DNA of 64,000 nucleotides from a virus (IMGVR_UViG_3300030012_002034:43382-107381), one strand, 5' to 3'; shown: positions 25,579 to 59,289, numbered from the stretch's first letter. Numbers and translations: made by a program. Notes: generated by a model not told the origin, from the letters alone.

Positions 25579-26625
25579 CTATATATGCAAAAAGCCCTTT
25601 CTAGATTTTTCAGCAGCGCAAACCAAATTCCATAAAACCCTAGCACCAACATTTGCATCCCATTTTGATGAAGAATCAATAGAAACTTCTGATAAATCAA
25701 AACCAATTATTTTTCTTTGAGACTCTACAATTTTAAAAATCAAATAAATAGCTTCATCAAATTCTAACCCACCCGGAACTGGCGTTCCAGTTGATGGGCA
25801 CAAATAAGGACATAAGCCATCTATATCAAAACTTATATAAACATGCTCAGGTAGTTCAGAAATAATTTCATTTACTTGATCGTCCCAAGTAAGCCCTTTA
25901 AACCTACCCTCTTTTAATGTAGCATCAAAAAAGGTTTTAATTTTATCATTATTATCAGAAAAGACAAACTCTTCAGAAGAAAAATCACGAACACCAACTT
26001 GAACAAGTTTTGTTAAATTATTACACTCTTTTAGGACATTATACATGATTGAAGCATGAGATTGATCAAAATCTTGATAAGAATCTCTTAAATCGCAATG
26101 CGCATCAATTTGAAGAATCCCAAAGGAAGAATATTTCTCATCCAATGCTAGAATTAATCCTAATGGAACCGAATGCTCTCCTCCCAAAACCGAAACTAGA
26201 ACATCCTTATCAAGTAAATCTTTAGCTCTTTTATAAAGGCTTTCTTTTAATTGGTTATTAAACTGATTAACCGTGTTAACAAAATCCTTAAACTCAATAT
26301 TTTGATTGATACTCCCCCCTTCTTCCAGAAAAGTAAGATAAGCAATAGATTTTTCAGATAAGTGATTATTAATCTCTTTCCATTCAGAAGATAATTGAGA
26401 AAGAAAAACTTTTGTCTGATGAGCATTTGACAATTTATGATGAAAAAAATCAAGTTGTAAAGATTCCTCTAAAATACTTTTAGGGGCATCAGAGGCTCCT
26501 TTTCCGTATGAAGTAGTTAAATCCCATGGTATAGATATTATTACTTGATTAGCATCTTTTTGTGCAACAGGAAATCCAAAAATATTTCCATTGGAAATTC
26601 CAACCTTATTTGGATCAAAAGACAT
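25579..26625 (-). CDS. speB: agmatinase (ureohydrolase/arginase family)
   Basis: PWD.TTSY..GA..AP, GGEHS, DAHCD, SFDIDGL.P..P.TGTPVPGG, GFDL.EV. Confidence 0.9.
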   Translation of the reverse strand: MSFDPNKVGISNGNIFGFPVAQKDANQVIISIPWDLTTSYGKGASDAPKSILEESLQLDFFHHKLSNAHQTKVFLSQLSSEWKEINNHLSEKSIAYLTFLEEGGSINQNIEFKDFVNTVNQFNNQLKESLYKRAKDLLDKDVLVSVLGGEHSVPLGLILALDEKYSSFGILQIDAHCDLRDSYQDFDQSHASIMYNVLKECNNLTKLVQVGVRDFSSEEFVFSDNNDKIKTFFDATLKEGRFKGLTWDDQVNEIISELPEHVYISFDIDGLCPYLCPSTGTPVPGGLEFDEAIYLIFKIVESQRKIIGFDLSEVSIDSSSKWDANVGARVLWNLVCAAEKSRKGFLHI

Positions 26626-26637
26626 TTAGAATTTTTA

Positions 26638-26672
26638 AAAAATTAAAGCCCCAGAAATACATCCAGGGCCTT
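26638..26672 (-). terminator. probable terminator immediately upstream of agmatinase
   Basis: AAGGCCCTGG...CTGGGGCTTT followed by AATTTTTT. Confidence 0.5.
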
Positions 26673-26705
26673 GATAACCAATTAAATTATTAATTATGAG
26701 CTTCT

Positions 26706-27131
26706 TTACCAACAAGTACCTTCACAGTCTAATGGCATACATACAACAACAGGTATTGAACAATCTAGAGTTTCCTCTCCATTTTGTATTTTAAAAGTTT
26801 TTACAAGTGAAAAAAGTTGACCTGGTGCTACGCCTCCTTCAGCTGCTTCTGCACAACTAGTAAATGTATTACATGCAAGCAAAAGTTTAAGAGAACTTTC
26901 TCCTGCTGCTGCTGATGCTTCAGCTGCTGCTTCATTTGCTGTAGTTGCTAATTCACTTACTTCATTAATTTGTTGTTGATTTTTAATTGTTGTTGTAGAA
27001 ATAGTTGCAATATCAGCATTAACTTGAGGAATAACTTGATTATTCATTTGACCTGTAGTAACAGGTTTCATATCAGCTCCTTTGTTTAACAACTTATCAG
27101 GAGATACTGCTTTTAGTTTTTTAACTGCCAT
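26706..27131 (-). CDS. structural protein, N-terminus paralogous to 27152..27748
   Basis: MAVKKLKAVSPDKLL..ADMKPV..GQMNN. Confidence 0.55.
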   Translation of the reverse strand: MAVKKLKAVSPDKLLNKGADMKPVTTGQMNNQVIPQVNADIATISTTTIKNQQQINEVSELATTANEAAAEASAAAGESSLKLLLACNTFTSCAEAAEGGVAPGQLFSLVKTFKIQNGEETLDCSIPVVVCMPLDCEGTCW

Positions 27132-27151
27132 TGTTTAAAGTTTTAATTAGA

Positions 27152-27748
27152 TTATGAGAATGGAGTTGCTGCAGTACCAGAATGACCTAATTCTGCACGT
27201 ACTCTCCACTCAGTATCAGAAATACCTACAAACTCAATTTTATCACCAACTAGTCCTCCAGTTGTAGTACCATTTAATGTAATCGCAGTACTTCCTGCAG
27301 CAGCAAAATAAGATATAGCATCTCCTCCAGCTATGTGACTGTTAAGTAGGGCATAACCACTTATTGTGGTTCCTGCACTAACTCCTATAAGATGATTACC
27401 AGAAGTTACCTTTTTTGTTATTAAAACAGTTATTCTTGCGCCTTCTGATGGAGTAGGTAATCCTAGAATTATACCTAGATTTCCTACCACAAGATATTCA
27501 TTTCCAGCCGCTCCAACTGGTGGTAGTAAGGGGTTAATTGGTGTTAAATCTGGTAATGTAACAAGACCAGTAAACTTAGGATCATTAATATCTGCTTTTA
27601 AAGCAATAGCTGATGCATTAGTTGATACTTCTGCTGCTATCTGTCCTTTTAAATCATTATTCCAATCTCCTACTTTTAAAGGAGTCATATCTACTTCCTT
27701 CAAAAGATTTTTACTAGGGGAAGTAGGAACTATTTTCTTTAGTGCCAT
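27152..27748 (-). CDS. structural/decoration protein
   Basis: MALKKIVPTSPSKNLL..VDMTPL..GDWNN; C-terminal LP...G...ITLNGTTTGG..GD beta domain. Confidence 0.55.
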   Translation of the reverse strand: MALKKIVPTSPSKNLLKEVDMTPLKVGDWNNDLKGQIAAEVSTNASAIALKADINDPKFTGLVTLPDLTPINPLLPPVGAAGNEYLVVGNLGIILGLPTPSEGARITVLITKKVTSGNHLIGVSAGTTISGYALLNSHIAGGDAISYFAAAGSTAITLNGTTTGGLVGDKIEFVGISDTEWRVRAELGHSGTAATPFS

Positions 27749-27787
27749 TTTTTTAAATTTATAAATTCTTAATTAGTATACTAATAT

Positions 27788-27798
27788 TAATATACAAA
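27788..27798 (-). promoter_or_regulatory. late-type motif TTTGTATATTA (4/5)
   Basis: 39 nt upstream of ATG 27748. Confidence 0.6.
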
Positions 27799-27806
27799 AA
27801 ATATTT

Positions 27807-28184
27807 TTAATTTCTAAGTAATCTGTTCATAAATGCAGAAAAACCTAATCCATATACTGCTCTACATATTATAGTTATTATGACTGAGTCTATGATATTT
27901 TGATAGTTTCCTTGTAATACAAAAAATAATCCAGCAAATAAAAAAATATTTCTAAGAAATTTCATTAGATGCCAAGCATCCGTTACAAATACAAATATTG
28001 TAGTAGAACCTGGAAACTTAGCTCCATATCTAGGGTCATTAAGCTTGTACTTATTCTTCCAAGATATTTCTGGATTCCAAAAAGCGTGATTAAATGAACT
28101 AAATTTAGATCTGTAAAAATGAAATTGTAATGTATCCATATGAGCTTCTGCTATACCAGCTAGGAAAAACATTAACAATTCCAT
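27807..28184 (-). CDS. membrane protein
   Basis: Hydrophobic helices, SWKNKY and TDAWHL motifs. Confidence 0.6.
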   Translation of the reverse strand: MELLMFFLAGIAEAHMDTLQFHFYRSKFSSFNHAFWNPEISWKNKYKLNDPRYGAKFPGSTTIFVFVTDAWHLMKFLRNIFLFAGLFFVLQGNYQNIIDSVIITIICRAVYGLGFSAFMNRLLRN

Positions 28185-28186
28185 TC

Positions 28187-28408
28187 TTAATCTTTTTTTC
28201 TATAATATTCTAGTTCGTGAGCTATAGTTCCTCCTAATGCTCCAATACATGCTATACCTACACCAATCTTTAAATACCAACTATGTAAATATTGATCAGT
28301 AACTAAACAATATATATAAAACCCTAGACAAGTAGATGCTAGAGTTATAGTTGCTAATGATGTCAGCACATCTAATTTGCGTCTCCACTTTGGATTAAGC
28401 AATCCCAT
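28187..28408 (-). CDS. two-TM membrane protein
   Basis: 73 aa, two hydrophobic segments. Confidence 0.6.
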   Translation of the reverse strand: MGLLNPKWRRKLDVLTSLATITLASTCLGFYIYCLVTDQYLHSWYLKIGVGIACIGALGGTIAHELEYYRKKD

Positions 28409-28782
28409 TATCTTAAAGATTTACCTTGGATTACTTTAGGAGGGCACATTCCGCCCATTCCCATTTTTGTAGCACCGCCTCTTTTCTTTTTACGTTTATT
28501 ATATGCATCTTTCATTATGCTAAACATAACATTTTTATTTTCATTTGCTTTTTGGATCTTATCAAGATCTTGACCTGTCATTCCGCCCAATTTCTTTTTA
28601 TCAATTGTATACTCTCCAGTATCATAGTTAACATTTACACCAGAGCTAATACTTTTAGTTTGTCTATCAATAAGCTTGTCATATAATCTTCCAGCTTTTT
28701 TAGCTTTTCCAGCTTCTTTTGCTTTTGTGTATTTATCATACGTTCTTAGCTCTCTTTTAGCTAATCTATCTACTTTTGCCAT
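28408..28782 (-). CDS. basic protein with xxxGG motifs
   Basis: KKLGG, KKRGG, MGMGG. Confidence 0.65.
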   Translation of the reverse strand: MAKVDRLAKRELRTYDKYTKAKEAGKAKKAGRLYDKLIDRQTKSISSGVNVNYDTGEYTIDKKKLGGMTGQDLDKIQKANENKNVMFSIMKDAYNKRKKKRGGATKMGMGGMCPPKVIQGKSLR

Positions 28783-28784
28783 AA

Positions 28785-29327
28785 TTATCTGTTTTTTCTT
28801 GCTCCTCCTCTAGAGTAGTTTCTAAGAGTTTTAGCTTTAATTACTGAACCACCTGTCTTTCTGTTACCAGGAATAGTAACCTCGTCAAGAGGAATTGGAT
28901 TTGTTTCTGTTCCAAAAGGTTGAAACTTAACCATTTTATTAAGATCAGCACCATAGCCCAATTCTTCTCTCAGTGCTTCCATTTGCGCTTGTCTTGCAGC
29001 TGCTCTATTAGCTGCGTTATTTTTCATCATGCTATCCATGATTTGTCTATCAACTGAATCAAGTTGATCTAGTTTTGTAGCAAATTGATCTGCCTCACTT
29101 CTAAATGGAACAAAGTTAACATTACTAACTGCATCCATAAACTCAGTTTTAGGACCAGCAGTTTGATACTTTTTTAACTTCTTTTTCTTTTTAGTACCTC
29201 CTTTTTTCATGGGGGTTAGGCTTTTAGCCATAGGCTTAGCTGCACCTCCTCCGTACATTTTCTTTATTTTCTTTTTTTTAGATGGTCTACCTACTTTAGA
29301 TCCATATGTTCCTTTACCTCTTGGCAT
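28785..29327 (-). CDS. basic protein with xxxGG motifs
   Basis: Poly-Lys runs; MYGGG, MKKGG, YQTAG, RKTGG, YSRGG. Confidence 0.65.
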   Translation of the reverse strand: MPRGKGTYGSKVGRPSKKKKIKKMYGGGAAKPMAKSLTPMKKGGTKKKKKLKKYQTAGPKTEFMDAVSNVNFVPFRSEADQFATKLDQLDSVDRQIMDSMMKNNAANRAAARQAQMEALREELGYGADLNKMVKFQPFGTETNPIPLDEVTIPGNRKTGGSVIKAKTLRNYSRGGARKNR

Positions 29328-29356
29328 AATTTCTTTTTTTTAAATACGTATACAAC

Positions 29357-29367
29357 TAATATACAAA
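29357..29367 (-). promoter_or_regulatory. late-type motif TTTGTATATTA (5/5)
   Basis: 29 nt upstream of ATG 29327. Confidence 0.6.
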
Positions 29368-29379
29368 AAAATTTTGATA

Positions 29380-29772
29380 TTATCCTATACTACTTTTGAG
29401 TTCTTCTGGCCATAATTGAACTATCTCGTAGTTTCTATCAAATAATTTAGCCGAAGTTTCCCGCATTCCGTAAGAACTAGCAATCAAATCTACCGTATCT
29501 TTTTCAAAAAACTTACATGAGTAAACATCTAACTGATAATCTAGACTTTCATCCCATGTATGAACTGCAATATGAGATGTAGTAATTATACCAACACCAG
29601 ATACTCCTGGATGATCATTTGGTTCATACCCTACAACAGGATTTATAGGCATTGTCTTGACATACTGCATATCAAGTGCCTCAACTAAATTATTTATTAA
29701 ACTAGTTACTTCTTCAATAGTTAAAGATTTATCTAGAGTTCCTTTAGATACAAGATGTTTATGATTAAGCAT
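29380..29772 (-). CDS. stand-alone pyruvoyl-dependent SpeD/AdoMetDC-family decarboxylase (possibly Arg/Orn decarboxylase)
   Basis: Likely start MLNHKHL at 29772; GVSGVGIITT|SHIAVHTW self-cleavage motif; LDVYSCK. Confidence 0.85.
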   Translation of the reverse strand: MLNHKHLVSKGTLDKSLTIEEVTSLINNLVEALDMQYVKTMPINPVVGYEPNDHPGVSGVGIITTSHIAVHTWDESLDYQLDVYSCKFFEKDTVDLIASSYGMRETSAKLFDRNYEIVQLWPEELKSSIG

Positions 29773-29846
29773 ATTAATAATTTTAGAAAAGGGCCGCCAA
29801 CTAGAGCAGCCCTTCAGGAAGAATATGAAAATATATTTGAACATCA

Positions 29847-29874
29847 CAAATATAATAACTTTTTTTGTATACAA
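29847..29874 (-). promoter_or_regulatory. host-type promoter TTG-N17-TATATTTG for the SpeD homologue
   Basis: TAnnTTTG at 29854-29847. Confidence 0.45.
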
Positions 29875-29910
29875 CGGTATATGGAAAAATAATGTGCAAT
29901 AAGTTGTAGT

Positions 29911-30072
29911 GGGTATTATATAACAATACCCCCCTGCCACCACCCCTCTGGCCTACCCCCCTTGCTTGGCATGGCCAACACACAAAATCTGACTACACAA
30001 AATAAAAAAAATTTCTGCAGGGAAAGTTTGCCTTCCCTCTCCCACACACAGGCCCTCACACCTCCAACCCTC
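29911..30072. other. C-rich divergence region; candidate genome terminus/packaging or origin region
   Basis: Non-coding GC-rich stretch in an AT-rich genome, at the switch from minus-strand late genes to plus-strand early genes. Confidence 0.4.
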
Positions 30073-30090
30073 AGACCTCTCTGAATTGAT
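30073..30090 (+). promoter_or_regulatory. early motif RGAC(C/A)TCTCTNAATTRAT (1/5)
   Basis: AGACCTCTCTGAATTGAT. Confidence 0.7.
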
Positions 30091-30112
30091 TGTAAATATA
30101 AAACTTATAATT

Positions 30113-30250
30113 ATGATTTCAATTTATTTAATTAAGAGATATAATCTCACATTACCTTCTGACAAGGTCAAAGCAGTTATTGCCGGTGTATGTTTATCTG
30201 CACCAATAGTAATACCTACAGTTCTAGTACTAACCGGAATAATACTATAA
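30113..30250 (+). CDS. small early membrane protein (45 aa)
   Basis: Hand translation MISIYLIKRYNLTLPSDKVKAVIAGVCLSAPIVIPTVLVLTGIIL. Confidence 0.55.
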   Translation: MISIYLIKRYNLTLPSDKVKAVIAGVCLSAPIVIPTVLVLTGIIL

Positions 30251-30253
30251 GCC

Positions 30254-30475
30254 ATGAGATATAAAAGATTAAAACTAATAGTATTTAAGCATCTATGTTT
30301 CTTACTTAGTGTGTTATATATGGTAGCATCTATATTCTGCTGGATGGAAATAGCAGTTACTGAACCAAGATATACTACTGATGCAAGTCTAATAGTTGCA
30401 TTTGTAACAATGCTTCTTGCTGCTGTTTCCTGGTTAGGATTTATGGAATGTAGAACTAAACTACAGAAGCTATGA
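30254..30475 (+). CDS. small early two-TM protein
   Basis: 73 aa, two hydrophobic helices. Confidence 0.6.
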   Translation: MRYKRLKLIVFKHLCFLLSVLYMVASIFCWMEIAVTEPRYTTDASLIVAFVTMLLAAVSWLGFMECRTKLQKL

Positions 30476-30540
30476 ATGATATAGCTACTATTATCCTGGT
30501 ATCAATTCTGCTATACTCACAGTATAAACTAAATAATAAG

Positions 30541-30569
30541 TACGGAGACTAGATCTCTGTATTTTTTTT
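30541..30569 (+). terminator. intrinsic terminator
   Basis: TACGGAGA-CTAGA-TCTCTGTA + T8. Confidence 0.7.
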
Positions 30570-30587
30570 AGACCTCTCTGAATTAAT
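30570..30587 (+). promoter_or_regulatory. early motif (2/5)
   Basis: AGACCTCTCTGAATTAAT. Confidence 0.7.
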
Positions 30588-30611
30588 AGGGAACTTTAAA
30601 TTTATAAAATT

Positions 30612-30821
30612 ATGATATCCGCATTTATTATTGACATGATTAGAGAATATGAAAATGAATTAGATCTTCCGCAAGAAGAAAGATACACTGATAGTGATTT
30701 CTTCTATATGGAGATGCAACAAGCTGATGCTATATTACGCCAGCTTAAAGCAAAGATTGCAGAAGAACAGCACTATGCTGATCAGATGCTAATGATTCAA
30801 AGCATAATTTCTAAGTTCTAA
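30612..30821 (+). CDS. early hypothetical protein
   Basis: 69 aa between motif and terminator. Confidence 0.65.
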   Translation: MISAFIIDMIREYENELDLPQEERYTDSDFFYMEMQQADAILRQLKAKIAEEQHYADQMLMIQSIISKF

Positions 30822-30827
30822 TAAAGA

Positions 30828-30853
30828 GTCCTCTGTATAGAGGATTTTTTTTT
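30828..30853 (+). terminator. intrinsic terminator
   Basis: GTCCTCT-GTAT-AGAGGAT + T-run. Confidence 0.7.
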
Positions 30854-30856
30854 GGA

Positions 30857-30874
30857 GGACCTCTCTTAATTAAT
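30857..30874 (+). promoter_or_regulatory. early motif (3/5)
   Basis: GGACCTCTCTTAATTAAT. Confidence 0.7.
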
Positions 30875-30898
30875 AGTAACTTATAAATTATATATATT

Positions 30899-31207
30899 AT
30901 GCAAAATTTTTATTTAAAGTATGATTGCACACAGCTATCTAAAGGACATGGAATACATCGTAAAGGCCCTAATGCAATAGAAGCAAGTACAGTTTTGAAT
31001 GAGATTATACCATTTTATGCAAACTTAAAAAGGACACTTGAGTTCTCCAGAAAGCGGGGAAATAAACTTGCAGTACGTGTTATATCTAACCATGATAACT
31101 TCAGAGTTGTTGATATTGAATTAATAGGTGATGATTGGCACTATAAATGGAGGTTTGGTCTTGACATAGAACTATGGTCTTTCTTACCGGAAATACAAGA
31201 GGGTTAA
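30899..31207 (+). CDS. early hypothetical protein
   Basis: 102 aa. Confidence 0.65.
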   Translation: MQNFYLKYDCTQLSKGHGIHRKGPNAIEASTVLNEIIPFYANLKRTLEFSRKRGNKLAVRVISNHDNFRVVDIELIGDDWHYKWRFGLDIELWSFLPEIQEG

Positions 31208-31275
31208 TACCCTTTTGTTTTCCAACCAACTTGGGGAGCATATATGCCCGTTTGTGCAAAGGCGCAAGAGACTAA

Positions 31276-31319
31276 AAATTTTATTCTAAAATTTGGCTTT
31301 TAGACATCTCTTAATTGAT
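31276..31319 (+). promoter_or_regulatory. hairpin + early motif (4/5)
   Basis: AAATTTTA-TTC-TAAAATTT then AGACATCTCTTAATTGAT (31302-31319). Confidence 0.7.
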
Positions 31320-31349
31320 AGGAATTATTAATCATTTAAATTTACAATT

Positions 31350-31718
31350 ATGGCAAAGCCTAAATTTGAAAGCGTTACTTTAAGTAACGGCACACCCGCT
31401 AAAGTAGCGCAGGTATCAGCAGAGTTAATCTCAATTAATGAGAATGACATTTATGAAAACAAGAATGGTACTCAGTACCGCCTTTGTACAATCAAGTTTG
31501 ATAACGGTAATAAAGTTATGACTCCTGGTGCAATGATGTATGAGAGTAACTACCAGAAAGGCGTTACTGTCGGTAGCCATTATCTTGCAGAAATTACATT
31601 AACTGCTGATAATGACCCGCTATTTATTTGCTCTGCATTGTCTCAAAGACAGTCAGTATCTAACAGTGACTTTGATGTAGAAGTTACTGCTGCTGATTTC
31701 TCTGAAGCAGGCAAATAA
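31350..31718 (+). CDS. early protein, possible OB-fold ssDNA-binding protein
   Basis: Beta-rich, NKNGTQY hairpin, acidic tail; flanked by motif and terminator. Confidence 0.45.
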   Translation: MAKPKFESVTLSNGTPAKVAQVSAELISINENDIYENKNGTQYRLCTIKFDNGNKVMTPGAMMYESNYQKGVTVGSHYLAEITLTADNDPLFICSALSQRQSVSNSDFDVEVTAADFSEAGK

Positions 31719-31728
31719 ACCTACACAC

Positions 31729-31758
31729 AAAAGACAGACTAATACTCTGTCTTTTTTT
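31729..31758 (+). terminator. intrinsic terminator
   Basis: AAAAGACAGA...TCTGTCTTTTTTT. Confidence 0.75.
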
Positions 31759-31769
31759 CTACCTTAGAA

Positions 31770-31817
31770 AAATTCTTTATTCTAAAGAATTTGGCTTAAA
31801 GACATCTCTAAATTGAT
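31770..31817 (+). promoter_or_regulatory. hairpin + early motif (5/5)
   Basis: AAATTCTTTA-TTC-TAAAGAATTT then AGACATCTCTAAATTGAT (31800-31817). Confidence 0.7.
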
Positions 31818-31819
31818 TA

Positions 31820-32036
31820 TGTGTAGGTAGTGTTAACGGTTTTATAAGAAAACACGCAAGAGTTTAAAAGAACATGTAATATTTTACAAAGTTTTATAAA
31901 CATTTGTGTGTTGTTAACACAGTAGGAGTCAAACAACCCTTCTTTCTTAGGCTTAAAGCTTAAAAAAGAATTGTTATAGCTCATTATATATTATATATAG
32001 CTATTCTTTGGTTGACAATAGCTATTTGCCTACACA
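31820..32036 (+). ncRNA. putative structured ncRNA A (about 217 nt)
   Basis: Closing helix TGTGTAGGTA/TGCCTACACA; nested GTGTTAAC/GTTAACAC, ACACGCAAG/TTTGTGTGT, TGTAA/TTACA; no ORF. Confidence 0.5.
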
Positions 32037-32125
32037 CATTAGTCTATCTATCACTATATACATTACTTATGTAATCTCTTATAGTATCTTATATAGTTTC
32101 ATAGACTTATTCACCGGACTTAAAT

Positions 32126-32260
32126 AAAATAACAGCATTAGATGTAGGAGTGAAACTCTCATACCAACAATCTATAAAGTCTTGCATTAAAGCATGTAAA
32201 AGAACTTTAACTGACAGTACAATCTAAAGTAAATGACCTTAGTGGTATGGCTGTTATATT
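32126..32260 (+). ncRNA. putative structured ncRNA B
   Basis: Closing ATAACAGC/GCTGTTAT; internal TAGAT/ATCTA, GAGT/ACTC, TAAAGT/ACTTTA, TTGCAT/ATGTAA. Confidence 0.4.
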
Positions 32261-32325
32261 TATTCACCGGATTAATTCTATAATGGTTCGCAATTAAATA
32301 TTTATTAACCATTAAAATTTTTATT

Positions 32326-32535
32326 ATGAAAATTAAAATAGAATTAGAGATTACTGATACTCAACTTCAGAATGTAGACAATGTTAATACTCTTATGAGT
32401 TTCTTAGCTAATGATCTATATACTAAAGAACCTGATTTGTATAATTATATACATAGGCTCGGTGCAAACTGGGCTGATCAGCAGGCTAAAGAGTATCATG
32501 ATGCTCATTTTTATGACTGTGACTGCTATCGTTAG
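32326..32535 (+). CDS. hypothetical protein
   Basis: 69 aa with AT-rich leader. Confidence 0.6.
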   Translation: MKIKIELEITDTQLQNVDNVNTLMSFLANDLYTKEPDLYNYIHRLGANWADQQAKEYHDAHFYDCDCYR

Positions 32536-32599
32536 TAGTCATATGTCATTCACCGGATTAATAGTGTGTCAATAGATTGCACACTGTTATATTATTATT

Positions 32600-32678
32600 G
32601 GAGTGAGGGAGGACAGTTATACTTCGGTCACTGACTGGATACACAAACCCTGCAGGTCTTAGCCGTGTACCTCACTCT
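32600..32678 (+). ncRNA. putative three-way-junction RNA C
   Basis: GAGTGAGG/CCTCACTC; CAGTTA/TGACTG with C(UUCG)G loop; TACAC/GTGTA. Confidence 0.45.
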
Positions 32679-32706
32679 ATTAATTTAACAAATTAAATTA
32701 ACACTT

Positions 32707-32862
32707 ATGAAACAAATTACGCATTACTTATTTGCTGTACTCTTATTGGGTACACTTACTTCAGTATTTTCTTCCGGAGATTCATTCTCGCTTGGAAAGT
32801 CCTTAGTTATTTATGGATTTTGGGCGCTTATGTTATCTCCTATGACAATTAAAAACGTTTAA
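32707..32862 (+). CDS. small two-TM protein (51 aa)
   Basis: Hand translation MKQITHYLFAVLLLGTLTSVFSSGDSFSLGKSLVIYGFWALMLSPMTIKNV. Confidence 0.55.
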   Translation: MKQITHYLFAVLLLGTLTSVFSSGDSFSLGKSLVIYGFWALMLSPMTIKNV

Positions 32863-32867
32863 CTATT

Positions 32868-32990
32868 ATGAAAAAGATTATAATTACTCAAAAAGAAATC
32901 CAGGACGCTATGAAACATAGAGTTCAAAGGAACAAAAAAAAGTATTACCGGAAGGTAAAACACAAAGGTGCTTCTAAAGAGGCACAATGA
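32868..32990 (+). CDS. small basic protein (40 aa), ArfA-like motif
   Basis: MKKIIITQKEIQDAMKHRVQRNKKKYYRKVKHKGASKEAQ. Confidence 0.55.
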   Translation: MKKIIITQKEIQDAMKHRVQRNKKKYYRKVKHKGASKEAQ

Positions 32991-33049
32991 CATTTGGTGT
33001 TTATCTATAGCTTGCTATAGTATAAGCATCTCATGACCTTATGGTCATG

Positions 33050-33838: not shown

Positions 33839-33885
33839 ATATCAGAACAATTATTAATCAATTAAAGTTAAAGACGCATAAGCTT

Positions 33886-34350: not shown

Positions 34351-34518
34351 GGGGTTGAAGAGTGTAAGTCCAGACGTGGCAGTATCAACATAATAGAGAG
34401 TAAAACATTTGCGTACTCACTCTCTTCCTTACACACTAGTAAGCAATTCTTGTGCTTTAAACAAGATAGGTTTTAATACTTGTACCTGAACAAGTATTTT
34501 TTTTACTATCTTTACAAC

Positions 34519-34755: not shown

Positions 34756-34779
34756 AACTACCATTTAAATTATATATTT

Positions 34780-50123: not shown

Positions 50124-50141
50124 TTAAAAAAAATAAAGCAA

Positions 50142-51317: not shown

Positions 51318-51369
51318 AACTTCAACAGTTTCCAAATAAAGAAAAATTAAATAAGTTTATTCACAAGTT

Positions 51370-51392
51370 AAAGGGGTCTTAGGATCCCTTTT
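51370..51392 (+). terminator. intrinsic terminator
   Basis: AAAGGGGTC-TTAG-GATCCCTTTTT. Confidence 0.75.
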
Positions 51393-51411
51393 TCATTTTA
51401 AAAAAAGCTAT

Positions 51412-52734
51412 ATGGAAGATATGCAAAAAATAATTGAATTAAATGTTAAAACATTAGATGCAAATGGTGATGATCCAAATACTTGGATAGATAATGCTAA
51501 TGCTCATGAGTATACATATACGTTTAGTATAGTTGCTAGACCGCCAATGATTGTCTATGAATCAATAGAAGAGTTATATACTGATCTTAAATGGAACAAA
51601 GACCAGAATAATGTAGGTACAGTAGTAGTTAAGAAAGGAACTAAATTTCATTTTACTCCTGGTGTTAAATTTCCAAGACAACAATTTAAAGAACTACAAC
51701 AAGCTCATGGAGTTAAATCTATAAGAGATATAAGTAAGGCAGATTATATTATAATTGATAATAATATGACAGAAAGAACAGTTCAACAAAAATGGAAGCA
51801 TGGAGTAATAAAAGGCTCAACAATGTTTAATGTTTTATATTTTCTTAATGAAGACTTTATACCAATGTATAAGGATCGGGTAAGTGAATGTTATAAACAA
51901 GAAATTCTAGATAATGTTGATAAAGATCATATGTTTGAACTTGACTATAAAGATCTAAGTCGTGTCCGTTATGCATTAAAATACTTACGTGGAGAACATA
52001 AGTATGAAGTTGATAATGGAAGAAAAGGTTACTTAACTCCACAAGATGAGGCCCTTCTTCAACTTACTATAAATGAACTTAAAGGCACAAGTAAGTATCA
52101 TAATATAGTTGATGAAAATGATTATAAAACTCTTCTTGAATTTCAGAAAGATGATATATCTGAAAGATTAATTGATACTGATTTATTGTCTAAAGTTATT
52201 GACAAACACTTAGACAAAGTTGTTCTTGATGAAGAACAGTATCAAGCTTTAGATACAATGTTTAAAAGTTCTGATGAGGATAATCACATAATTGCTATGG
52301 AGATTATGGCTAACTGTCACTTTAAAGATAGTCTTCTGTACATTGAGAAGTTATTTCTTGATTATTCTCACAAAATGTGGAATACGGGAAAAGCTAATCA
52401 TGTAAACTTTAAGAATCTAAGAAGTTTAGTTGATAGAGCTGATACCTATGACATGAAATATGATAGAGGTTTTGATCATTCAATGAAAGTTTTAGAGAAG
52501 TTTGGTATGTTTACTCCAGAAAATATTAACTTTATGTTAGAAACACATATGAGTAAACTTAATCAATTACTTAATTCTACCAGTAGTTATTTTAATATTA
52601 AATCTATAACTTTAAATGAAGAATGTTTAAATAAATTAAATTTTAACTATATTTACACTACGCAGGATGATTATATACCTAAAGATGAAACTGCTGAAGA
52701 AGAAATAGAAGAAGAACAATTTACTCTTGATTAA
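51412..52734 (+). CDS. hypothetical protein
   Basis: 440 aa; RDISKADYII and S.DEDNH.IAMEIMANC motifs. Confidence 0.65.
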   Translation: MEDMQKIIELNVKTLDANGDDPNTWIDNANAHEYTYTFSIVARPPMIVYESIEELYTDLKWNKDQNNVGTVVVKKGTKFHFTPGVKFPRQQFKELQQAHGVKSIRDISKADYIIIDNNMTERTVQQKWKHGVIKGSTMFNVLYFLNEDFIPMYKDRVSECYKQEILDNVDKDHMFELDYKDLSRVRYALKYLRGEHKYEVDNGRKGYLTPQDEALLQLTINELKGTSKYHNIVDENDYKTLLEFQKDDISERLIDTDLLSKVIDKHLDKVVLDEEQYQALDTMFKSSDEDNHIIAMEIMANCHFKDSLLYIEKLFLDYSHKMWNTGKANHVNFKNLRSLVDRADTYDMKYDRGFDHSMKVLEKFGMFTPENINFMLETHMSKLNQLLNSTSSYFNIKSITLNEECLNKLNFNYIYTTQDDYIPKDETAEEEIEEEQFTLD

Positions 52735-52740
52735 AATTAT

Positions 52741-53748
52741 ATGAGTATAGAAATAAATTCACTCGTAGGTAATGAAGAACTTGAAAAGTTTTATAGCAAA
52801 CCTTTTGCTTTTAGTTATTCAGGTATAAACAAGCTACTGTTCTCTCCAAGTCTCTTTTATTCACATTATATATTGAATGAAAGAGAAGATAGTACTGACT
52901 CTCACCTGCTTGCAGGGAGGGTCATTCACTGTCTATTATTGGAACCAGAAAACTTTGATAAAGAATTCATGGTAATGCCTACAAGTTTACCATCCGGAAA
53001 TAATAAAAATGTTGTAGATCAAATCTTTAAAGTTTATACTTCAAATTATGGTAAAGATTTAAACTTAGAAGATTTTAAAGATGAGATCATATCTTATCTT
53101 GAAGAAATCAACTTACATCAGTCTTTAAAAACAGATGAACAAAGACTTAAGAAAATTTTATCAGATCAAAACAAATCATACTTTAAATTTTTAAAAGAAA
53201 AACAAGGTAAAACAATAGTTGATAATGATATAGTTAATCAAGCAACTGAAAGTGTGCGTGTATTAAAAGGAGATCCAGAGATATGTGAGCTATTACAGCT
53301 TAATCCGGATAGTGAACTTGAAGTACATAATGAGTTGTACATTGAAGCAGATCTTTCACCAACATGGCCATTTGGAATTAAAGGTGTTATAGATAATATT
53401 GTTATTGATGAAAAGAAAAAAATAATTTTTATTAATGATTTAAAAACAACAGGTAAGCCTTTAATTGACTTTGGTGATTCTGTAGAGTTCTATAGATATT
53501 GGATACAAGCTGCCATATATAGAAGACTTGTAGAACATAAATTTGGAATACGTGTTGGTTGGAGGATTGTATTTACATTTCTAGTAATAGATAAATACAA
53601 CATGTACTATCCTTTTCAAGTAACACCTACAACTTTTAAAACTTGGGATTTAGAACTTAATAATATCCTGAATCAATGTAAATATCACTATGAGTCCCGT
53701 GATTATACCTTACCTTACAAGTTAGCTAAACGTAAAGTAAAATTATAA
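52741..53748 (+). CDS. PD-(D/E)XK exonuclease (RecE/ExoVIII-like)
   Basis: SYSG, G..IHCLLLEP, KGVID...DLKTT, Y.Y..QAA.Y. Confidence 0.8.
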   Translation: MSIEINSLVGNEELEKFYSKPFAFSYSGINKLLFSPSLFYSHYILNEREDSTDSHLLAGRVIHCLLLEPENFDKEFMVMPTSLPSGNNKNVVDQIFKVYTSNYGKDLNLEDFKDEIISYLEEINLHQSLKTDEQRLKKILSDQNKSYFKFLKEKQGKTIVDNDIVNQATESVRVLKGDPEICELLQLNPDSELEVHNELYIEADLSPTWPFGIKGVIDNIVIDEKKKIIFINDLKTTGKPLIDFGDSVEFYRYWIQAAIYRRLVEHKFGIRVGWRIVFTFLVIDKYNMYYPFQVTPTTFKTWDLELNNILNQCKYHYESRDYTLPYKLAKRKVKL

Positions 53749-53753
53749 TTTGC

Positions 53754-54329
53754 ATGAAAATAACTTCGCTATATGATAAATACTTTCAAAAGTCTAAGAT
53801 ATTCTTATATCCGCTCTTAGACATTAAAAGAGGCACAAGTGTTGTCCCACATGAAACTTACCTTTCATGGAAGGATAACATCTCCTCTGAGGATATGAAA
53901 CTAGTCACTCTATACAAAACAAGAGAAGATACAATGTATAAAAACTTTATTGAAAAAGTTCTGCTTAAACATCCTAGGTTAGTAGAACATTGGGTTATTA
54001 ATAAAGAAAATACAGTATTTGTTTTTGATTTTTGTGATTTAGAAGATGACTGGTACTTTTTTATACAAGGAAAATATAGCAAAATAAATACAGCAACAAA
54101 GAGAAAGATATGTAACTTTTTTGAAAAGAATAGCGGTAATCATTTATATGTTACTAGCTATTTATTTCCGGATAATCACTTTAAAAACTATGCTAAAATT
54201 TTAGATGTTGATATATCACTTCTAAAGAATGTAGGTGAGTTATGTGATAAACCAGATCTTATAAAAGAAACATTAATCTTAGAAAAAGCAAATTTAGAAA
54301 ACATAGACAATTCAAAAATAAATTGTTAA
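53754..54329 (+). CDS. conserved hypothetical protein
   Basis: FLYPLL, F..GKYS, ELCDKPD. Confidence 0.65.
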   Translation: MKITSLYDKYFQKSKIFLYPLLDIKRGTSVVPHETYLSWKDNISSEDMKLVTLYKTREDTMYKNFIEKVLLKHPRLVEHWVINKENTVFVFDFCDLEDDWYFFIQGKYSKINTATKRKICNFFEKNSGNHLYVTSYLFPDNHFKNYAKILDVDISLLKNVGELCDKPDLIKETLILEKANLENIDNSKINC

Positions 54330-54348
54330 ATTTGATAAAAAAATCAAT

Positions 54349-54789
54349 ATGGAAAACTCAATGATGTTAGTTCAATCCTCATGGAATGGTGAACAGACTT
54401 TTAGAATGGTGCCAATTCACAAAGATTGCCCTTATGTAGAATGTATATGTGATCCTACTACAAAAGTATTTGTAGTTATATCTACTATTACTAAAAATAC
54501 ATTTCATATGATCCCTAAGTTAGATGATAATGGAGATCCTATGTTTGTTAAAAATCTTAAAAGGAAAAACGGTAAGATGCAAAAAGAAGAAAGGAGACAG
54601 TGTGAAACTTTCCAAGAGTTTTATTTAGAAGATACTAATTCAGTTATTGACATTGTAAAACATTTTGCACTTAATGACAAAACTTTTAAATTTAAATGGA
54701 AAGAATTTATAAAAGATAAACCTAAAGAGGATGCAAATACTCACAAAGGTTCAGCTTTAGTAAATCCTACTCCTGAGATTATAACCTAA
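54349..54789 (+). CDS. hypothetical protein
   Basis: 146 aa; TAAATTTG at 54327-54334 upstream. Confidence 0.65.
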   Translation: MENSMMLVQSSWNGEQTFRMVPIHKDCPYVECICDPTTKVFVVISTITKNTFHMIPKLDDNGDPMFVKNLKRKNGKMQKEERRQCETFQEFYLEDTNSVIDIVKHFALNDKTFKFKWKEFIKDKPKEDANTHKGSALVNPTPEIIT

Positions 54790-54808
54790 TCTAAACCAAA
54801 AAAAATAG

Positions 54809-54834
54809 AAAAGGGATCTTAGGGTCCCTTTTTT
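54809..54834 (+). terminator. intrinsic terminator
   Basis: AAAAGGGATC-TTAG-GGTCCCTTTTTT. Confidence 0.75.
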
Positions 54835-54847
54835 AATCTTTATTATT

Positions 54848-56836
54848 ATGAAGCAAAACTGGGTAATGGACTATGAAACTTTGTCTAATTGTTTTGTTGC
54901 TGTTTTCATTGATGTTAAATCTGATGACCAAGAAATATTTGTAATTCATAAACTAAAAAATGATATAGATAATTTTATATATTTTTTAGAAAGAAATATT
55001 CTTTATAATGAATGGCATATATCTTTTAATGGTTTAGGATTTGATGGACATATCACTGAATATATACTTAGAGATAAAGAACAGTTACAACAACTTAAAG
55101 GTGAAGACATTGCAAAATGGATTTACGGCAAAGCTCAATATATTATTGGAAAACAAAATGCAAAAGAGTTTCTAGACTTTAGTCCTAGAGATCTACAAGT
55201 AAAGCAATTAGATGTATTTAAATTAAATCACTGGGATAACGCTGCAAAAAGATCTAGTCTTAAATGGATTCAATACACAATGGATTGGTCTAATATAAAA
55301 GATATGCCTATTCATCATAGTACGGAGATAACAACACAAGAAGAAATAGATCAGATAATTAAGTATTGTATTAATGATGTTGAATCTACTAAGAAGATTA
55401 TGAATCTTAGTAAAAGTCAGATACAGTTAAGACAAAAACTAACTGATGAATATAATATTAATTTATACAGTGCTTCTGAGCCAAGAATATCTAAAGAATT
55501 ATTTTTATATTTCTTAAGTAAAAAGACAGGTATATCTAAGTATGAACTTAGACAAATGAGAACATACAGAAATCTTATAGTAATTAAAGATCTTATTCTT
55601 CCATATGTTAATTTTAAAACAGCTACATTTCAAAAGCTTCTTAGTAAGTTTAAAGCAGCTACAGTAGAACCTGAGAATACAAAAGGTGGTTTTAAATATT
55701 CTGCTAGATATAGAGGAGTTAAAACTGACTTTGGTCTTGGTGGTATTCATGGAGCAAGAGAACCTGGGGTATATGAATCTGATAAAGATAATATAATTAT
55801 GTCTTCAGATGTTACAAGTTTCTATCCTAATCTTGCTATTAGAAATGGTTGGGCGCCCAAACATTTACCCAAGATAGAATTTTGTGATCAGTATGAGTGG
55901 TTCTTTGAAGAAAGAAAAAAGATACCTAAATCAGATCCAAAGAATTATGTTTACAAGATTATTCTCAACTCAACCTATGGTTTAAGTAATGATAAGAATT
56001 CTTTTCTATATGATCCTGAATTTACTATGAGGATTACTATCAATGGTCAACTTAGTTTGTGTATGTTATATGAGATGATAATGGAAGGCATTCCAGATGC
56101 AACTCCTATTATGCATAATACAGATGGTTTAGAGACTATTATACCTAGAGAATATCAAGATAAGTATATGGAAATATGTAAGGAATGGGAAGACGCCACC
56201 AACTTGCAACTTGAACATGATACATATCAAAAGGTTATTCTAGGAGATGTAAATAACTACATAGCTGTAAAAGAATACAGTGAGGTACACAAGGATATTT
56301 ATAATGACATAAAGTATTCTAACCCTCATGATTTATTTAAAGAAGAGAATGGTAAATTCTATCATGCTAGTACTAAATGTAAAGGTAGATTTGAGTTTAG
56401 TAATCTAGCTCTACATAAAAACAAAAGCTTCTTGGTTATACCAAAAGCAATTTATAATTATTTTGTACATGAAATAGACCCTGAAAAATTTATAACAGAA
56501 CATCAAAATATTCTTGATTTCTGTGGTGGTAAAAAGATAAGAGGTGATTGGACTTTCTATAGTCACTACACCAAAGATGGAAAATATGTTAAAGATGAAC
56601 TTCAACATACTCTTAGATATTATGTAAGTAATAAAGGTTGTAAGATAATTAAAAGAAATAATCTTGATGACCGGGAAATACAACTTGAAGCTGGTAAGTG
56701 GATGCAAACATTATTTATTCGCTATAAAAAGAAACCATTTGACAAGTATGATTTGAATTATAATTACTACATAACAAAAGCAAAGAAAGAAATAAAAAAT
56801 CTAGAACCGTTAATAACACAATATAAATTATTTTAA
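54848..56836 (+). CDS. polB: family B DNA polymerase
   Basis: Exo DYE, FN..GFD, YCINDV; pol DVTSFYP, K..LNSTYG, NTDG. Confidence 0.9.
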   Translation: MKQNWVMDYETLSNCFVAVFIDVKSDDQEIFVIHKLKNDIDNFIYFLERNILYNEWHISFNGLGFDGHITEYILRDKEQLQQLKGEDIAKWIYGKAQYIIGKQNAKEFLDFSPRDLQVKQLDVFKLNHWDNAAKRSSLKWIQYTMDWSNIKDMPIHHSTEITTQEEIDQIIKYCINDVESTKKIMNLSKSQIQLRQKLTDEYNINLYSASEPRISKELFLYFLSKKTGISKYELRQMRTYRNLIVIKDLILPYVNFKTATFQKLLSKFKAATVEPENTKGGFKYSARYRGVKTDFGLGGIHGAREPGVYESDKDNIIMSSDVTSFYPNLAIRNGWAPKHLPKIEFCDQYEWFFEERKKIPKSDPKNYVYKIILNSTYGLSNDKNSFLYDPEFTMRITINGQLSLCMLYEMIMEGIPDATPIMHNTDGLETIIPREYQDKYMEICKEWEDATNLQLEHDTYQKVILGDVNNYIAVKEYSEVHKDIYNDIKYSNPHDLFKEENGKFYHASTKCKGRFEFSNLALHKNKSFLVIPKAIYNYFVHEIDPEKFITEHQNILDFCGGKKIRGDWTFYSHYTKDGKYVKDELQHTLRYYVSNKGCKIIKRNNLDDREIQLEAGKWMQTLFIRYKKKPFDKYDLNYNYYITKAKKEIKNLEPLITQYKLF

Positions 56837-56838
56837 TC

Positions 56839-57954
56839 ATGGGATTTAAAATTAAAAACTACGGGAGAGCGCATATAATAGGTGCAGCTCTTCCAAATCA
56901 TGCAGATACTTATACTGTAATTAAACATGAAGATGTAATTAATCTTTGTATAAATGAGTTAGAACAAGCAGGTTTTAATATTATTGGAGAAACATATAGA
57001 GCAACTAGTCTAGGAGACATTGCTACTGGTGTATATAAAGTAAGCTATGGTAATGATCCTGATTTAGGAATCATGTTAGCTTGGACTAATAGTTATAATA
57101 AGCAAGTTGCATTTAACTGTACTTCAGGTGCTTACGTTGTAAACTCTGGAAACCTTATGATAGGTAACTACGGAACCTTAAATAAGTTTAGAAGAAAACA
57201 TACAGGAACAGCAGATGAAGATACTGAGAATTCTATTAAAGATCAGATTACACATGCTAAGATGCACTTTGCAAGTCTTGCAGAGGATAAAAAGAAGATG
57301 GAAAATATCAAGATGAGTAGAACTGAACAAGCTGAACTGCTTGGTATTTTATTTGCTAAAGAAGATCTTCTTACTCCAAGACAAGCTACTATAGTAAAAA
57401 AGCTTATGAATAAACCTAACTTCTTTTACTCAGGTGGTAGTGACAGCTTATGGACATTTTATAACTATGTAAGTGAAGCTCTACAAGATACTCATCCAAT
57501 AAGATGGTTGATTGATCAGAGATTCTTTCATGAATTTATCAGAGGTTTTAAAGATCTAGATAATATAGAGACTGAAGTTAGTGATGATAAGCTTACTCAA
57601 GTTTTCTTTAATGGAGAAAGTCCGCTAGCACAAGTTAATGACTTAACAGCATGTCCTCCTGTAGATCCTGCTCAAGTAGACTTAGAAGATTCTATTGCAG
57701 AAGTAGAAGCTGAGGCTAAAGCTACAGAAGATGAACCTACAATTGAAGAGCAAATAGCTGAAGATGAAGCTGCAGTAGCTGATGTATGTGATAAACATGA
57801 AGAAGAAACTCCATCTGAAATGAATGACATAGATGTCACAAAGTTAAAACTAGATCCTACAGCTTTCAGAGCTAATGTGACAATAGACAATGACTTTGAT
57901 TTTGAAGAAGATGAAGAAGAAGAGGAGTCTGCAGAAGCTGACTTTGATTTTTAA
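56839..57954 (+). CDS. DUF932/DUF945-like protein with long acidic tail
   Basis: Y.VI.H, W.NSYNK, RKHTG, SLW.FYN...EAL. Confidence 0.6.
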   Translation: MGFKIKNYGRAHIIGAALPNHADTYTVIKHEDVINLCINELEQAGFNIIGETYRATSLGDIATGVYKVSYGNDPDLGIMLAWTNSYNKQVAFNCTSGAYVVNSGNLMIGNYGTLNKFRRKHTGTADEDTENSIKDQITHAKMHFASLAEDKKKMENIKMSRTEQAELLGILFAKEDLLTPRQATIVKKLMNKPNFFYSGGSDSLWTFYNYVSEALQDTHPIRWLIDQRFFHEFIRGFKDLDNIETEVSDDKLTQVFFNGESPLAQVNDLTACPPVDPAQVDLEDSIAEVEAEAKATEDEPTIEEQIAEDEAAVADVCDKHEEETPSEMNDIDVTKLKLDPTAFRANVTIDNDFDFEEDEEEEESAEADFDF

Positions 57955-57967
57955 TAGTTACAAATAT

Positions 57968-58000
57968 AGGGGAATGACTTTGGTTGTTCCCCTTTTTTTT
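57968..58000 (+). terminator. intrinsic terminator overlapping a host-type promoter
   Basis: AGGGGAATGAC-TTTG-GTTGTTCCCCT + T-run; TAAATTTG follows at 58001-58008. Confidence 0.75.
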
Positions 58001-58011
58001 TAAATTTGAAT

Positions 58012-59289
58012 ATGACAAAATCTCTAGGTAATCACATTTTGGTTGAGTTCATGAATTGTTCTCCAGAAATAATGAATGATGCTTCTGCAATTGAACAAAA
58101 CATGGTTGGAGCAGCTAAACTTGCTGGAGCAACAGTTGTCAATTCTACCTTCCATCATTTTTCTCCATACGGAGTTTCAGGTGTTGTTGTTATTGAGGAA
58201 AGTCATTTTGCAATTCATACTTGGCCTGAATATGGATATGCTGCAGTAGATCTATTTACATGTGGTGAAATAAATGCGTGGTTATCTTTTGATAATCTTA
58301 AAGAATGCTTTGGTGCACAATCATATTCTGCTATTGAAATGAAAAGAGGGTCTCTTAATTTATTAAAAAGAAATAATTTTAAAATTCCTAATACATCTAG
58401 AATAAAAGATAATCATAATAATTTAAATGTATATGCAAGAAACGTTTGGTTTACTGATAAAGATGAGAATCAAGCTTTGTCATTAAGATTTACCGGTGAG
58501 GTTTTTCATGATACCCAGTCTCCTTTTCAAAGAGTACGTATTTTAAAATCTTATAAATATGGTAAAATGCTTGCATTAGATGATATGGTTATGACTACTG
58601 AAAAAGATGAATTTCATTATCATGAGATGATTAGTCATCCTTCGGTCTTTATTCATGGAAATGTTAAAAATGTTTTAGTTATTGGAGGAGGAGATGGAGG
58701 AACAGTAAGAGAACTTTTAAGACATGAAGAAATTAAAAAAATCACCATGGTTGAAATTGATAATGAAGTTATTAATGCTTGTAAAAAACATTTACCTTTA
58801 ATAGCATCAGAGTTTAATAATCCCAGATTAAATTTAATTATTGATGATGGAATTAAGTTTGTAAAACTTGCTAAAAAAGAAACATATGATTTAATTATAG
58901 TTGATGGCTCAGATCCAGTTGGTCCTGCAGAAGGTTTATTTACAAAAGAGTTTTATGAAAATTGTTATAATGCTCTTTCAAAAAAAGGGATACTTGTAGC
59001 ACAAGGAGAATCTCCAAAGTTTAATGAAAATGCGTTTATAGTTTTAAACAAAACATTAAACAATATTTTTGGATCAAATAATACTGCTATATCTTTATTT
59101 TATGCACCAACTTATCCAACAGGAATGTGGAGTTTTCAGTATGGTTTTAAAGGTAATGTAGATTCTATCTCCTTATCCAAAAAAGGACAAATAGAGACAT
59201 TTGTATCCAAGCATAAATTATCTTACTATAATTATGAAATTCATCTTTCAAGTTTTGTATTACCTAATTTTATAAAAAATAAGATATAA
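58012..59289 (+). CDS. speDE: S-adenosylmethionine decarboxylase - spermidine synthase fusion
   Basis: N-terminal [16 protein letters not shown]|[10 protein letters not shown]...DLFTCG; C-terminal [35 protein letters not shown]. Confidence 0.92.

Follow-up and report, generated by a model that had tools for sequence, protein, structure and literature searches.

Polyamine synthesis genes were analyzed in a stretch of viral DNA of 64,000 nucleotides (nt) (IMGVR_UViG_3300030012_002034:43382-107381, hereafter the window, with positions counted from its first letter), which makes up the right-hand part (64 kb) of a 107,381-bp virus record in IMG/VR with a CheckV completeness of 91%. The original prediction had placed three genes for enzymes of spermidine synthesis in this DNA, one for an agmatinase, one for a stand-alone homologue of the S-adenosylmethionine decarboxylase (AdoMetDC) SpeD and one for a SpeD-SpeE fusion. 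Open reading frames (ORFs) with Pfam and NCBIfam matches were found for all three at the predicted positions (Table 1). Together, the three genes would provide four activities, leading from arginine through agmatine and putrescine to spermidine in the infected cell, a reading that we place slightly on the probable side.

Table 1. Polyamine genes of the window, their domains and the hairpins that precede them.
Feature	Position	Strand	Remarks
Agmatinase-family ureohydrolase, 348 amino acids (aa)	25579..26625	-	PF00491 E 8e-51, full length; TIGR01230 best model
Terminator-like hairpin and U-run	26645..26672	-	19 nt before agmatinase ATG; z -3.09; phage DNA, outside the segment shared with contig L120
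Stand-alone SpeD-fold pyruvoyl enzyme, 130 aa	29380..29772	-	PF02675 and catalytic triad; probable L-arginine decarboxylase (SpeDA-like, HTVC201P type)
Hairpin and U-run	29788..29815	-	about 16 nt before ATG of stand-alone gene; -17.9 kcal/mol, z -3.85
Terminator-like hairpin and U-run after DUF932 gene	57968..57993	+	18 nt before fusion ATG; -16.4 kcal/mol, z -3.35
AdoMetDC (SpeD)-spermidine synthase (SpeE) fusion, 425 aa	58012..59289	+	both halves over NCBIfam equivalog cut-offs
Fusion SpeD domain	about 58021-58350	+	EES|H site, HTWPE, Cys
Fusion SpeE domain	about 58441-59286	+	GGGDGG, DGSDP

The source of the DNA is, as judged from its predicted proteins, a marine crAss-like (Crassvirales-like) phage. 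One ORF contains the crassvirus major capsid domain (PF23898 Crass_capsid, E 1e-31 in the Pfam scan), the large terminase subunit TerL is 24-26% identical to Crassvirales terminases across 86% of its length, and phage proteins match portal and head/major capsid protein PHROGs. The Pfam scan of 78 window ORFs contained the three polyamine genes and no member of the other amino-acid decarboxylase families PF02784, PF01276 and PF01862; the remaining left 43 kb of the record consist of giant ORFs only (600-4,000 aa). The GC content of the polyamine genes (0.29-0.32) is like that of their flanks and of the phage (0.31; 30.9%).

The fusion is, by strong homology, a bona fide-looking AdoMetDC/spermidine synthase. 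It matches the Pfam models AdoMet_dc (E 6e-40), Spermine_synt_N and Spermine_synth (E 9e-59), and its NCBIfam scores are 136.7 bits for TIGR03330 (cut-off 75.65), 303.5 bits for TIGR00417 speE (cut-off 249.55) and 329.7 bits for NF002010 (cut-off 260). Proteins of this fused type have been found experimentally functional in Ca. Pelagibacter, where an AdoMetDC is joined to an aminopropyltransferase (PMC11107197). The phage protein has identities of 70-78% with thousands of fused proteins, the named ones coming from Crocinitomicaceae (Lishizhenia, Fluviicola and Taishania), so that the Flavobacteria-type donor that had been suggested can be narrowed down to this family. Since its top identity to any database protein is 78% (amino acids), the fusion would be an older capture, or one from a different donor.

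The agmatinase-family protein has kept all six ligands of the binuclear Mn center (H151, D174, H176, D178, D267 and D269, located by the motifs GGxHS, DAHxD and SxDxD), and these are invariant among 12 homologues. With 157.5 bits it stays under the TIGR01230 cut-off of 174.3, still with this agmatinase model as the best-scoring one in NCBIfam; the orthologue from the host lineage is likewise under the cut-off (155.7 bits), and the closest solved relatives are found only at E 1e-23. The substrate would be either agmatine, yielding putrescine and urea, or N1-aminopropylagmatine, yielding spermidine.

Genes of the same two types are often neighbors in the host lineage. In 28 of 80 Crocinitomicaceae-type loci an agmatinase-family gene lies 20-830 nt downstream of the fusion gene and on the same strand, as a speDE-speB operon, and the phage agmatinase is 56-61% identical to the Crocinitomicaceae counterparts. 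The operon of Lishizhenia and Fluviicola metagenome-assembled genomes shares the fused architecture with the phage (the fusions being 70-75% identical), whereas fusion and agmatinase genes of the phage are 31 kb apart and on opposite strands.

The order of the middle steps could also be that of Thermus thermophilus and Thermococcus kodakarensis, which use the same families (an arginine decarboxylase (ADC), SpeD, SpeE and a SpeB homologue) to convert agmatine first to N1-aminopropylagmatine and then to spermidine. The SpeE domain would then make N1-aminopropylagmatine, and the agmatinase homologue would hydrolyse it directly to spermidine, with putrescine bypassed. N1-aminopropylagmatine is a further product of most of the bacterial spermidine synthases that have been tested (PMC11107197), the phage ureohydrolase is divergent by both of the measures given above, and its host-lineage counterpart is operonic with speDE and not with an ADC gene. 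We nonetheless consider this order rather unlikely, with an agmatinase model still scoring best and with the SpeE domain above the spermidine synthase equivalog cut-offs, although the two substrates are inseparable by sequence alone.

The stand-alone SpeD homologue

The arginine-spermidine route depends on the function of the 130-aa protein. It matches the Pfam AdoMet_dc family (PF02675, E 9e-12) with 45.8 bits, the cut-off being 25, and is under the cut-off of the TIGR03330 AdoMetDC equivalog (39.2 versus 75.65 bits). The ATG at 29772 is taken as the true start because 17 homologues share the MLxHKH beginning. Within the motif ITTSHIAVHTWDE...QLDVYSC, self-cleavage is predicted at T65|S66, with H71 and C86 as further catalytic residues. 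S66, H71 and C86 are aligned to the triad S63/H68/C83 of T. maritima and are invariant across 18 family members; an S/H/C triad is kept by all SpeD homologues (PMC10407285). The alignment of the 18 sequences contains 50 invariant columns, and the family profile matches the solved AdoMetDC proenzymes 2iii, 1vr7 and 1tlu (E 1.5e-5 to 5e-4).

Published marker residues distinguish the activities that have arisen from SpeD. The Pro of HTWPE is described as completely conserved in bona fide AdoMetDCs and not conserved in the SpeDA group of ADCs (PMC10407285). In the stand-alone protein and all 17 relatives it is replaced by Asp (HTWDE). The marker is not absolute, because the SpeD of phage phiYS40, a bona fide AdoMetDC, is also without the Pro. 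For SpeDC, the ornithine decarboxylase (ODC) group, the diagnostic residues are Gln, Thr, Phe and Tyr (PMC10407285, Fig. 8, Fig. S5); their positions were taken from the domains printed in Fig. S5 (QLIETSLxSGHFAN...Y-LDxFSC), and not from the WebLogo. Only one of the four, the Thr, is present in the stand-alone protein, which has G61 for Gln, HTW for GHF and Q80 for Tyr.

The closest characterised relative is an ADC. When the stand-alone protein was compared by tblastn with 50,697 phage records, only ten matches were found, nine of them in Pelagibacter phages, with HTVC201P among them. The HTVC201P enzyme (AXH71538, SpeDA) decarboxylates arginine and is inactive on ornithine, on lysine and, in vivo, on S-adenosylmethionine (AdoMet) (Li et al., PNAS 2023, PMC9992855). 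It is 33% identical to the stand-alone protein over 99 aa (BLASTP, E 3e-14). Both are small, phage-borne class 1b SpeD homologues (122 versus 130 aa) that have in common an N-terminal MLxHKH, T|SH, H[ST]WDE, QLDVY[ST]C and a C-terminal DR. Apart from the low identity, they differ in that HTVC201P has an ODC-like Gln where the window family has Gly, and in that the window family forms a clade of its own. The fusion SpeD domain, by comparison, matches 147 phage records, including those of S-PM2, P2559S and phiYS40, the SpeDs of which have been demonstrated to be bona fide AdoMetDCs (PMC9992855); Pelagibacter phages do not appear among the ten commonest organism names of these 147 records.

The same division is seen in a tree (128 columns) of reference sequences and 150 homologues that were obtained by searching 1.8 billion representatives exhaustively. 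The family of the stand-alone protein is a separate clade of 10 rows (SH-aLRT 98), nested in a clade of 91 rows (SH-aLRT 92) in which the TSH...WD motif is dominant and which includes the HTVC201P ADC reference. Bona fide AdoMetDC references and the fusion domains are placed on the opposite side of the tree. As the references include no characterised ODC (LBP and UCP01-04 are absent), this activity was judged by the published marker residues only.

Gene content also bears on the function. According to the rule of Li et al., an ADC is predicted where an anomalous second SpeD occurs with a single SpeE and an agmatinase in a genome devoid of canonical ADC and ODC genes (PMC9992855). The window has two PF02675 matches, one Spermine_synth and one Arginase-family gene and none of PF02784, PF01276 and PF01862, the rest of the record being the giant ORFs. 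Because of the motifs, the tblastn matches, the tree clade and this genomic rule, we read the stand-alone protein as a probable pyruvoyl arginine decarboxylase. That the second SpeD homologue serves as the source of agmatine, as originally proposed, is thus supported by its being no typical AdoMetDC and by its grouping with the HTVC201P enzyme.

Two other functions were weighed. The enzyme could be an ODC, or a dual ornithine/arginine decarboxylase, that makes putrescine itself, with the agmatinase draining host agmatine and the two routes converging. HTVC201P groups with the SpeDC ODC clade in the published tree (PMC10407285), the phage enzyme UCP01 accepts both substrates, the stand-alone protein has, like the ODCs, a Thr before the pyruvoyl Ser, and agmatine could be supplied by the host's own SpeA-like enzyme. 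What makes this unlikely in our judgment is that three of the four SpeDC markers are missing (Gly/Gln, HTW/GHF and Q-LDV/Y-LDV), that the ODC pattern TSLxxGHF is absent from all 150 nearest representatives of the stand-alone protein, and that a co-acquired agmatinase fits the published rule predicting an ADC.

Alternatively, the protein could be a second AdoMetDC that provides extra decarboxylated AdoMet (dcAdoMet) or serves the modification of DNA or of something else, or it could act on another substrate or be inactive, which would leave the phage with the steps from agmatine to spermidine only. The PF02675 match, the triad and the retained Glu of WxE would be in line with an AdoMetDC, as would the Pro-less AdoMetDC of phiYS40 and the occurrence of the gene alone in other phages. 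The low TIGR03330 score, the lack of AdoMetDC activity in the closest characterised relative and the bona fide AdoMetDC already held by the fusion make it improbable, and the 50 invariant columns argue against decay. A probable ADC remains the reading that we adopt below.

The stand-alone gene moves among unrelated marine phages, because copies of 75-79% amino acid identity occur in phages that share nothing else nearby. Such copies were found in eleven IMG/VR contigs, none of which has another gene in common with this phage within 10 kb. The carriers that could be searched as whole records had no Crass_capsid match and no agmatinase, SpeE or second SpeD. One of them (L009) is an IMG/VR record of 165,609 bp that is 98% complete, with the gene at 10001-10372; in this and three further large phages (L006, L008 and L013) the gene adjoins primase and SbcC-like genes. 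The family is common in marine metagenomes, and one member was found on 78 contigs.

Two other origins of the gene were considered and rejected. A duplication of the SpeD domain of the fusion would not account for an alignment that extends over a 68-aa core only (36.6 bits) and for the placement in different clades. A host origin is not supported either, as the gene was not found in 5 host genomes (Pfam) or in 401 (protein search).

As a separate observation, an unusually G-rich stretch (29930-29990, minus strand, GGGGGGTAGGCCAGAGGGGTGGTGGCAGGGGGG) lies between the stand-alone gene and its divergent upstream neighbor, in a genome of 31% GC.

Gain of the three genes

Each polyamine gene is a single-gene insertion, and the genes on either side of it are syntenic with those of related phages. 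These relatives were found through the DNA polymerase, with 339 IMG/VR matches in a syntenic crAss-like clade, from which 80 loci were fetched. In all 80, the interval from the DUF932 gene to the convergent giant ORF was without the fusion, and in L132, the closest of the informative relatives (DNA polymerase 90% identical), the site is occupied by a 66-aa ORF. In two relatives with neighboring proteins 86-99% identical to those of the window (L211 and L212), the conserved sites contain neither the agmatinase nor the stand-alone gene, and in a third (L214) the two genes that flank the agmatinase are directly adjacent. Next to the fusion site, the 3' end of the DUF932 gene differs, because the protein has 468 aa in L132 (8416-9822) versus 371 aa in the window (56839-57954).

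The absence extends beyond the insertion sites. None of 25 related crAss-like records, eight of them at least 90% complete, two with terminal repeats and one being the 102-kb closest relative, contained PF02675 or PF00491, and PF01564 was found in none of the 20 related records tested. Judged from these comparisons, the three genes are separate and recent acquisitions (moron-like or auxiliary metabolic genes). The stepwise acquisition that had been suspected is supported by these absences, by the empty sites seen in related phage contigs and by the different histories of the three genes.

The agmatinase gene is 97.6% identical at the nucleotide level to one on a metagenome contig (Ga0163109_10033975, 1-3758; L120), in a match that starts 8 nt ahead of the ATG and ends 19 nt short of the phage stop. 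On this contig it is surrounded by genes for OmpA, NlpC/P60, ParA and ParB; ParA and ParB are 72-79% identical to those of Crocinitomicaceae, the NlpC/P60-ParA arrangement is the same, and the GC content is 31.3% versus 30.9% in the phage. The contig is most likely a piece of host chromosome from a low-GC marine relative of Crocinitomicaceae. A search of 401 sampled genomes of the family, in which the best agmatinase identity was 61%, and of 401 of the order did not recover this bacterium. Most likely, the agmatinase gene was exchanged very recently between the phage and this lineage, in either direction.

A chimeric assembly that joined host DNA to the phage was the artefact to consider, as two of the three genes have close bacterial homologues. 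We regard it as extremely unlikely. A contig from another assembly (L119) matches window positions 24911-27714 with 99.7% identity across 2,804 bp and crosses both borders of the agmatinase gene, which excludes the artefact for this gene. For the other two it is very unlikely, given the synteny of the flanking genes with related phages and the recurrence of the proteins: the exact three proteins are recorded on 5-6 contigs from four sources (JGI, Logan, ENA and Tara). Moreover, the GC content of the polyamine genes is like that of the phage, whereas the sampled fusions of the host lineage have higher values (0.34-0.43). A search of IMG/VR with an exact 42-nt pattern spanning the fusion's 5' junction gave no second copy, so that the evidence for the borders of the fusion is limited to synteny, composition and recurrence at the protein level. 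Single-protein scans of IMG/VR for the three proteins gave no matches.

All three genes start directly behind a GC-rich hairpin of 10-11 bp with a U-run after it (z -3.1 to -3.9). Only about 8 of 77 window genes have such a hairpin at a distance of 8-30 nt upstream of the start. The polyamine genes appear to have entered the genome directly downstream of terminators, where the space is too short for a promoter of their own. The Bacteroidetes -7 promoter motif TAnnTTTG had 94 matches versus 103 expected, so that the copy before the fusion is uninformative, and a sigma-70 promoter scan gave results at chance level.

Other accessory-looking domains are present in the window. The Pfam scan identified a homologue of the protease adaptor ClpS (PF02617, E 2e-13), a PNKP-type phosphatase (PF25109), a DUF2201 VWA/metallopeptidase pair and a SegE-like GIY-YIG endonuclease.

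The proposed route and known systems

In the proposed route, the 130-aa protein would cleave itself between Thr65 and Ser66 to generate its pyruvoyl cofactor, and would then convert arginine to agmatine. The agmatinase-family Mn enzyme would hydrolyse agmatine to putrescine and urea, as homology and the host operon suggest. The N-terminal domain of the fusion is predicted, by strong homology, to decarboxylate AdoMet to dcAdoMet, and on the same grounds the C-terminal domain would transfer the aminopropyl group to putrescine, forming spermidine. Phage replication requires spermidine. The product could neutralise DNA, as originally proposed, it could serve translation, replication or DNA packaging, or it could make the phage independent of host regulation.

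The enzymes would have come from two sources. Fusion and agmatinase probably derive from the chromosome of the host lineage, the low-GC marine relatives of Crocinitomicaceae in which speDE and speB are often operonic, and the decarboxylase from small genes of SpeD descent that circulate as a pool among unrelated marine phages. Five host-lineage genomes contain a single AdoMet_dc domain (in the fusion) and no PvlArgDC. They encode a 465-aa decarboxylase of the alanine-racemase fold, with biosynthetic arginine decarboxylase as the best models (short, and below the cut-off), and separately LysA. The phage decarboxylase would stand in for this pyridoxal phosphate (PLP)-dependent, ADC-like host enzyme, to which it is unrelated, and was not found in the 401 family genomes. 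The three insertions would be separate and recent, each directly behind a terminator-like hairpin.

The full proposal is that a self-sufficient arginine-spermidine pathway of four activities was assembled by three captures from two gene pools, within the time in which near-identical relatives diverged, and that a 130-aa self-processing enzyme from a previously uncharacterised, phage-mobile clade of SpeD descent replaces the PLP-dependent ADC of the host. We consider the case for this proposal evenly balanced.

Several points speak against the proposed route. The activities of all three proteins are predicted ones. The ADC assignment draws on one characterised relative of 33% identity, and substrate specificity is labile in the superfamily, because the related phage enzyme UCP01 acts on ornithine as well as arginine. 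An ODC is excluded by motif only, with none among the tree references, and the deep nodes of the 128-column tree are weakly supported. The Pro marker is weakened by the bona fide AdoMetDC of the Thermus phage phiYS40. The agmatinase is below the TIGR01230 cut-off and belongs to an uncharacterised Bacteroidota subfamily. The presence of the decarboxylase alone in other carriers fits an ADC that feeds host enzymes, and proves nothing. Finally, with a terminator-like hairpin 16-19 nt before each gene, expression may occur by read-through.

Individual components of the route have precedents. Phage SpeD, SpeD-derived ADC and ODC, and phage SpeE are already known (PMC9992855, PMC10407285, PMC11360552). 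In a survey of viral polyamine genes, multi-enzyme modules were almost confined to giant eukaryotic viruses; one phage had AdoMetDC and spermidine synthase (SpdSyn), and only one phage agmatinase homologue was named (PMC9992855). Published phages have at most two polyamine enzymes each. In the literature searched, no paper connected crAss-like phages with polyamine synthesis.

The nearest systems differ from the present one in their extent or their enzymes. Pelagiphages of the HTVC201P type depend on host enzymes, whereas the crAss-like phage, with its Flavobacteria-type host, adds the downstream enzymes. An uncultured freshwater Caudovirales phage (PMC9992855, Fig. 3, Fig. 6) also encodes a module from putrescine to spermidine; its AdoMetDC and spermidine synthase genes, of gammaproteobacterial type, lie next to each other without being fused, and a putrescine-forming step is missing, in contrast to the fused Crocinitomicaceae-type gene, the distant agmatinase gene and the probable ADC of the crAss-like phage. 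Virus-encoded routes of several steps from an amino acid to a triamine are known from giant viruses, as ODC-AdoMetDC-SpdSyn in Algavirales, as arginase-ODC-homospermidine synthase (HSS) in Imitervirales, and as ADC-agmatine iminohydrolase (AIH)-N-carbamoylputrescine amidohydrolase (NCPAH)-HSS in chlorovirus PBCV-1. These have eukaryotic hosts, PLP-dependent decarboxylases and other intermediates, whereas the present genes belong to a tailed phage of 107 kb and encode a putative pyruvoyl decarboxylase and an agmatinase.

As predicted from its genes, the phage holds more polyamine steps than have been described for any phage. If the assignments are true, the record would rise to four activities that span the whole arginine route, in the crAss-like group, and a phage would for the first time be known to have a complete set of steps from an amino acid to a triamine. 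The locus would further illustrate how selection for spermidine supply in infected cells can lead to the natural assembly of a pathway, and it shows the order and sources of phage pathway building, because all 25 relatives are without the genes and the donors are traceable. The compact set of three genes is directly testable in polyamine mutants of E. coli. Beyond this phage, the analysis points to a widespread, uncharacterised clade of pyruvoyl decarboxylases of 120-130 aa in marine phages, which are annotated as S-adenosylmethionine decarboxylases and may be mis-assigned in surveys of auxiliary metabolic genes.

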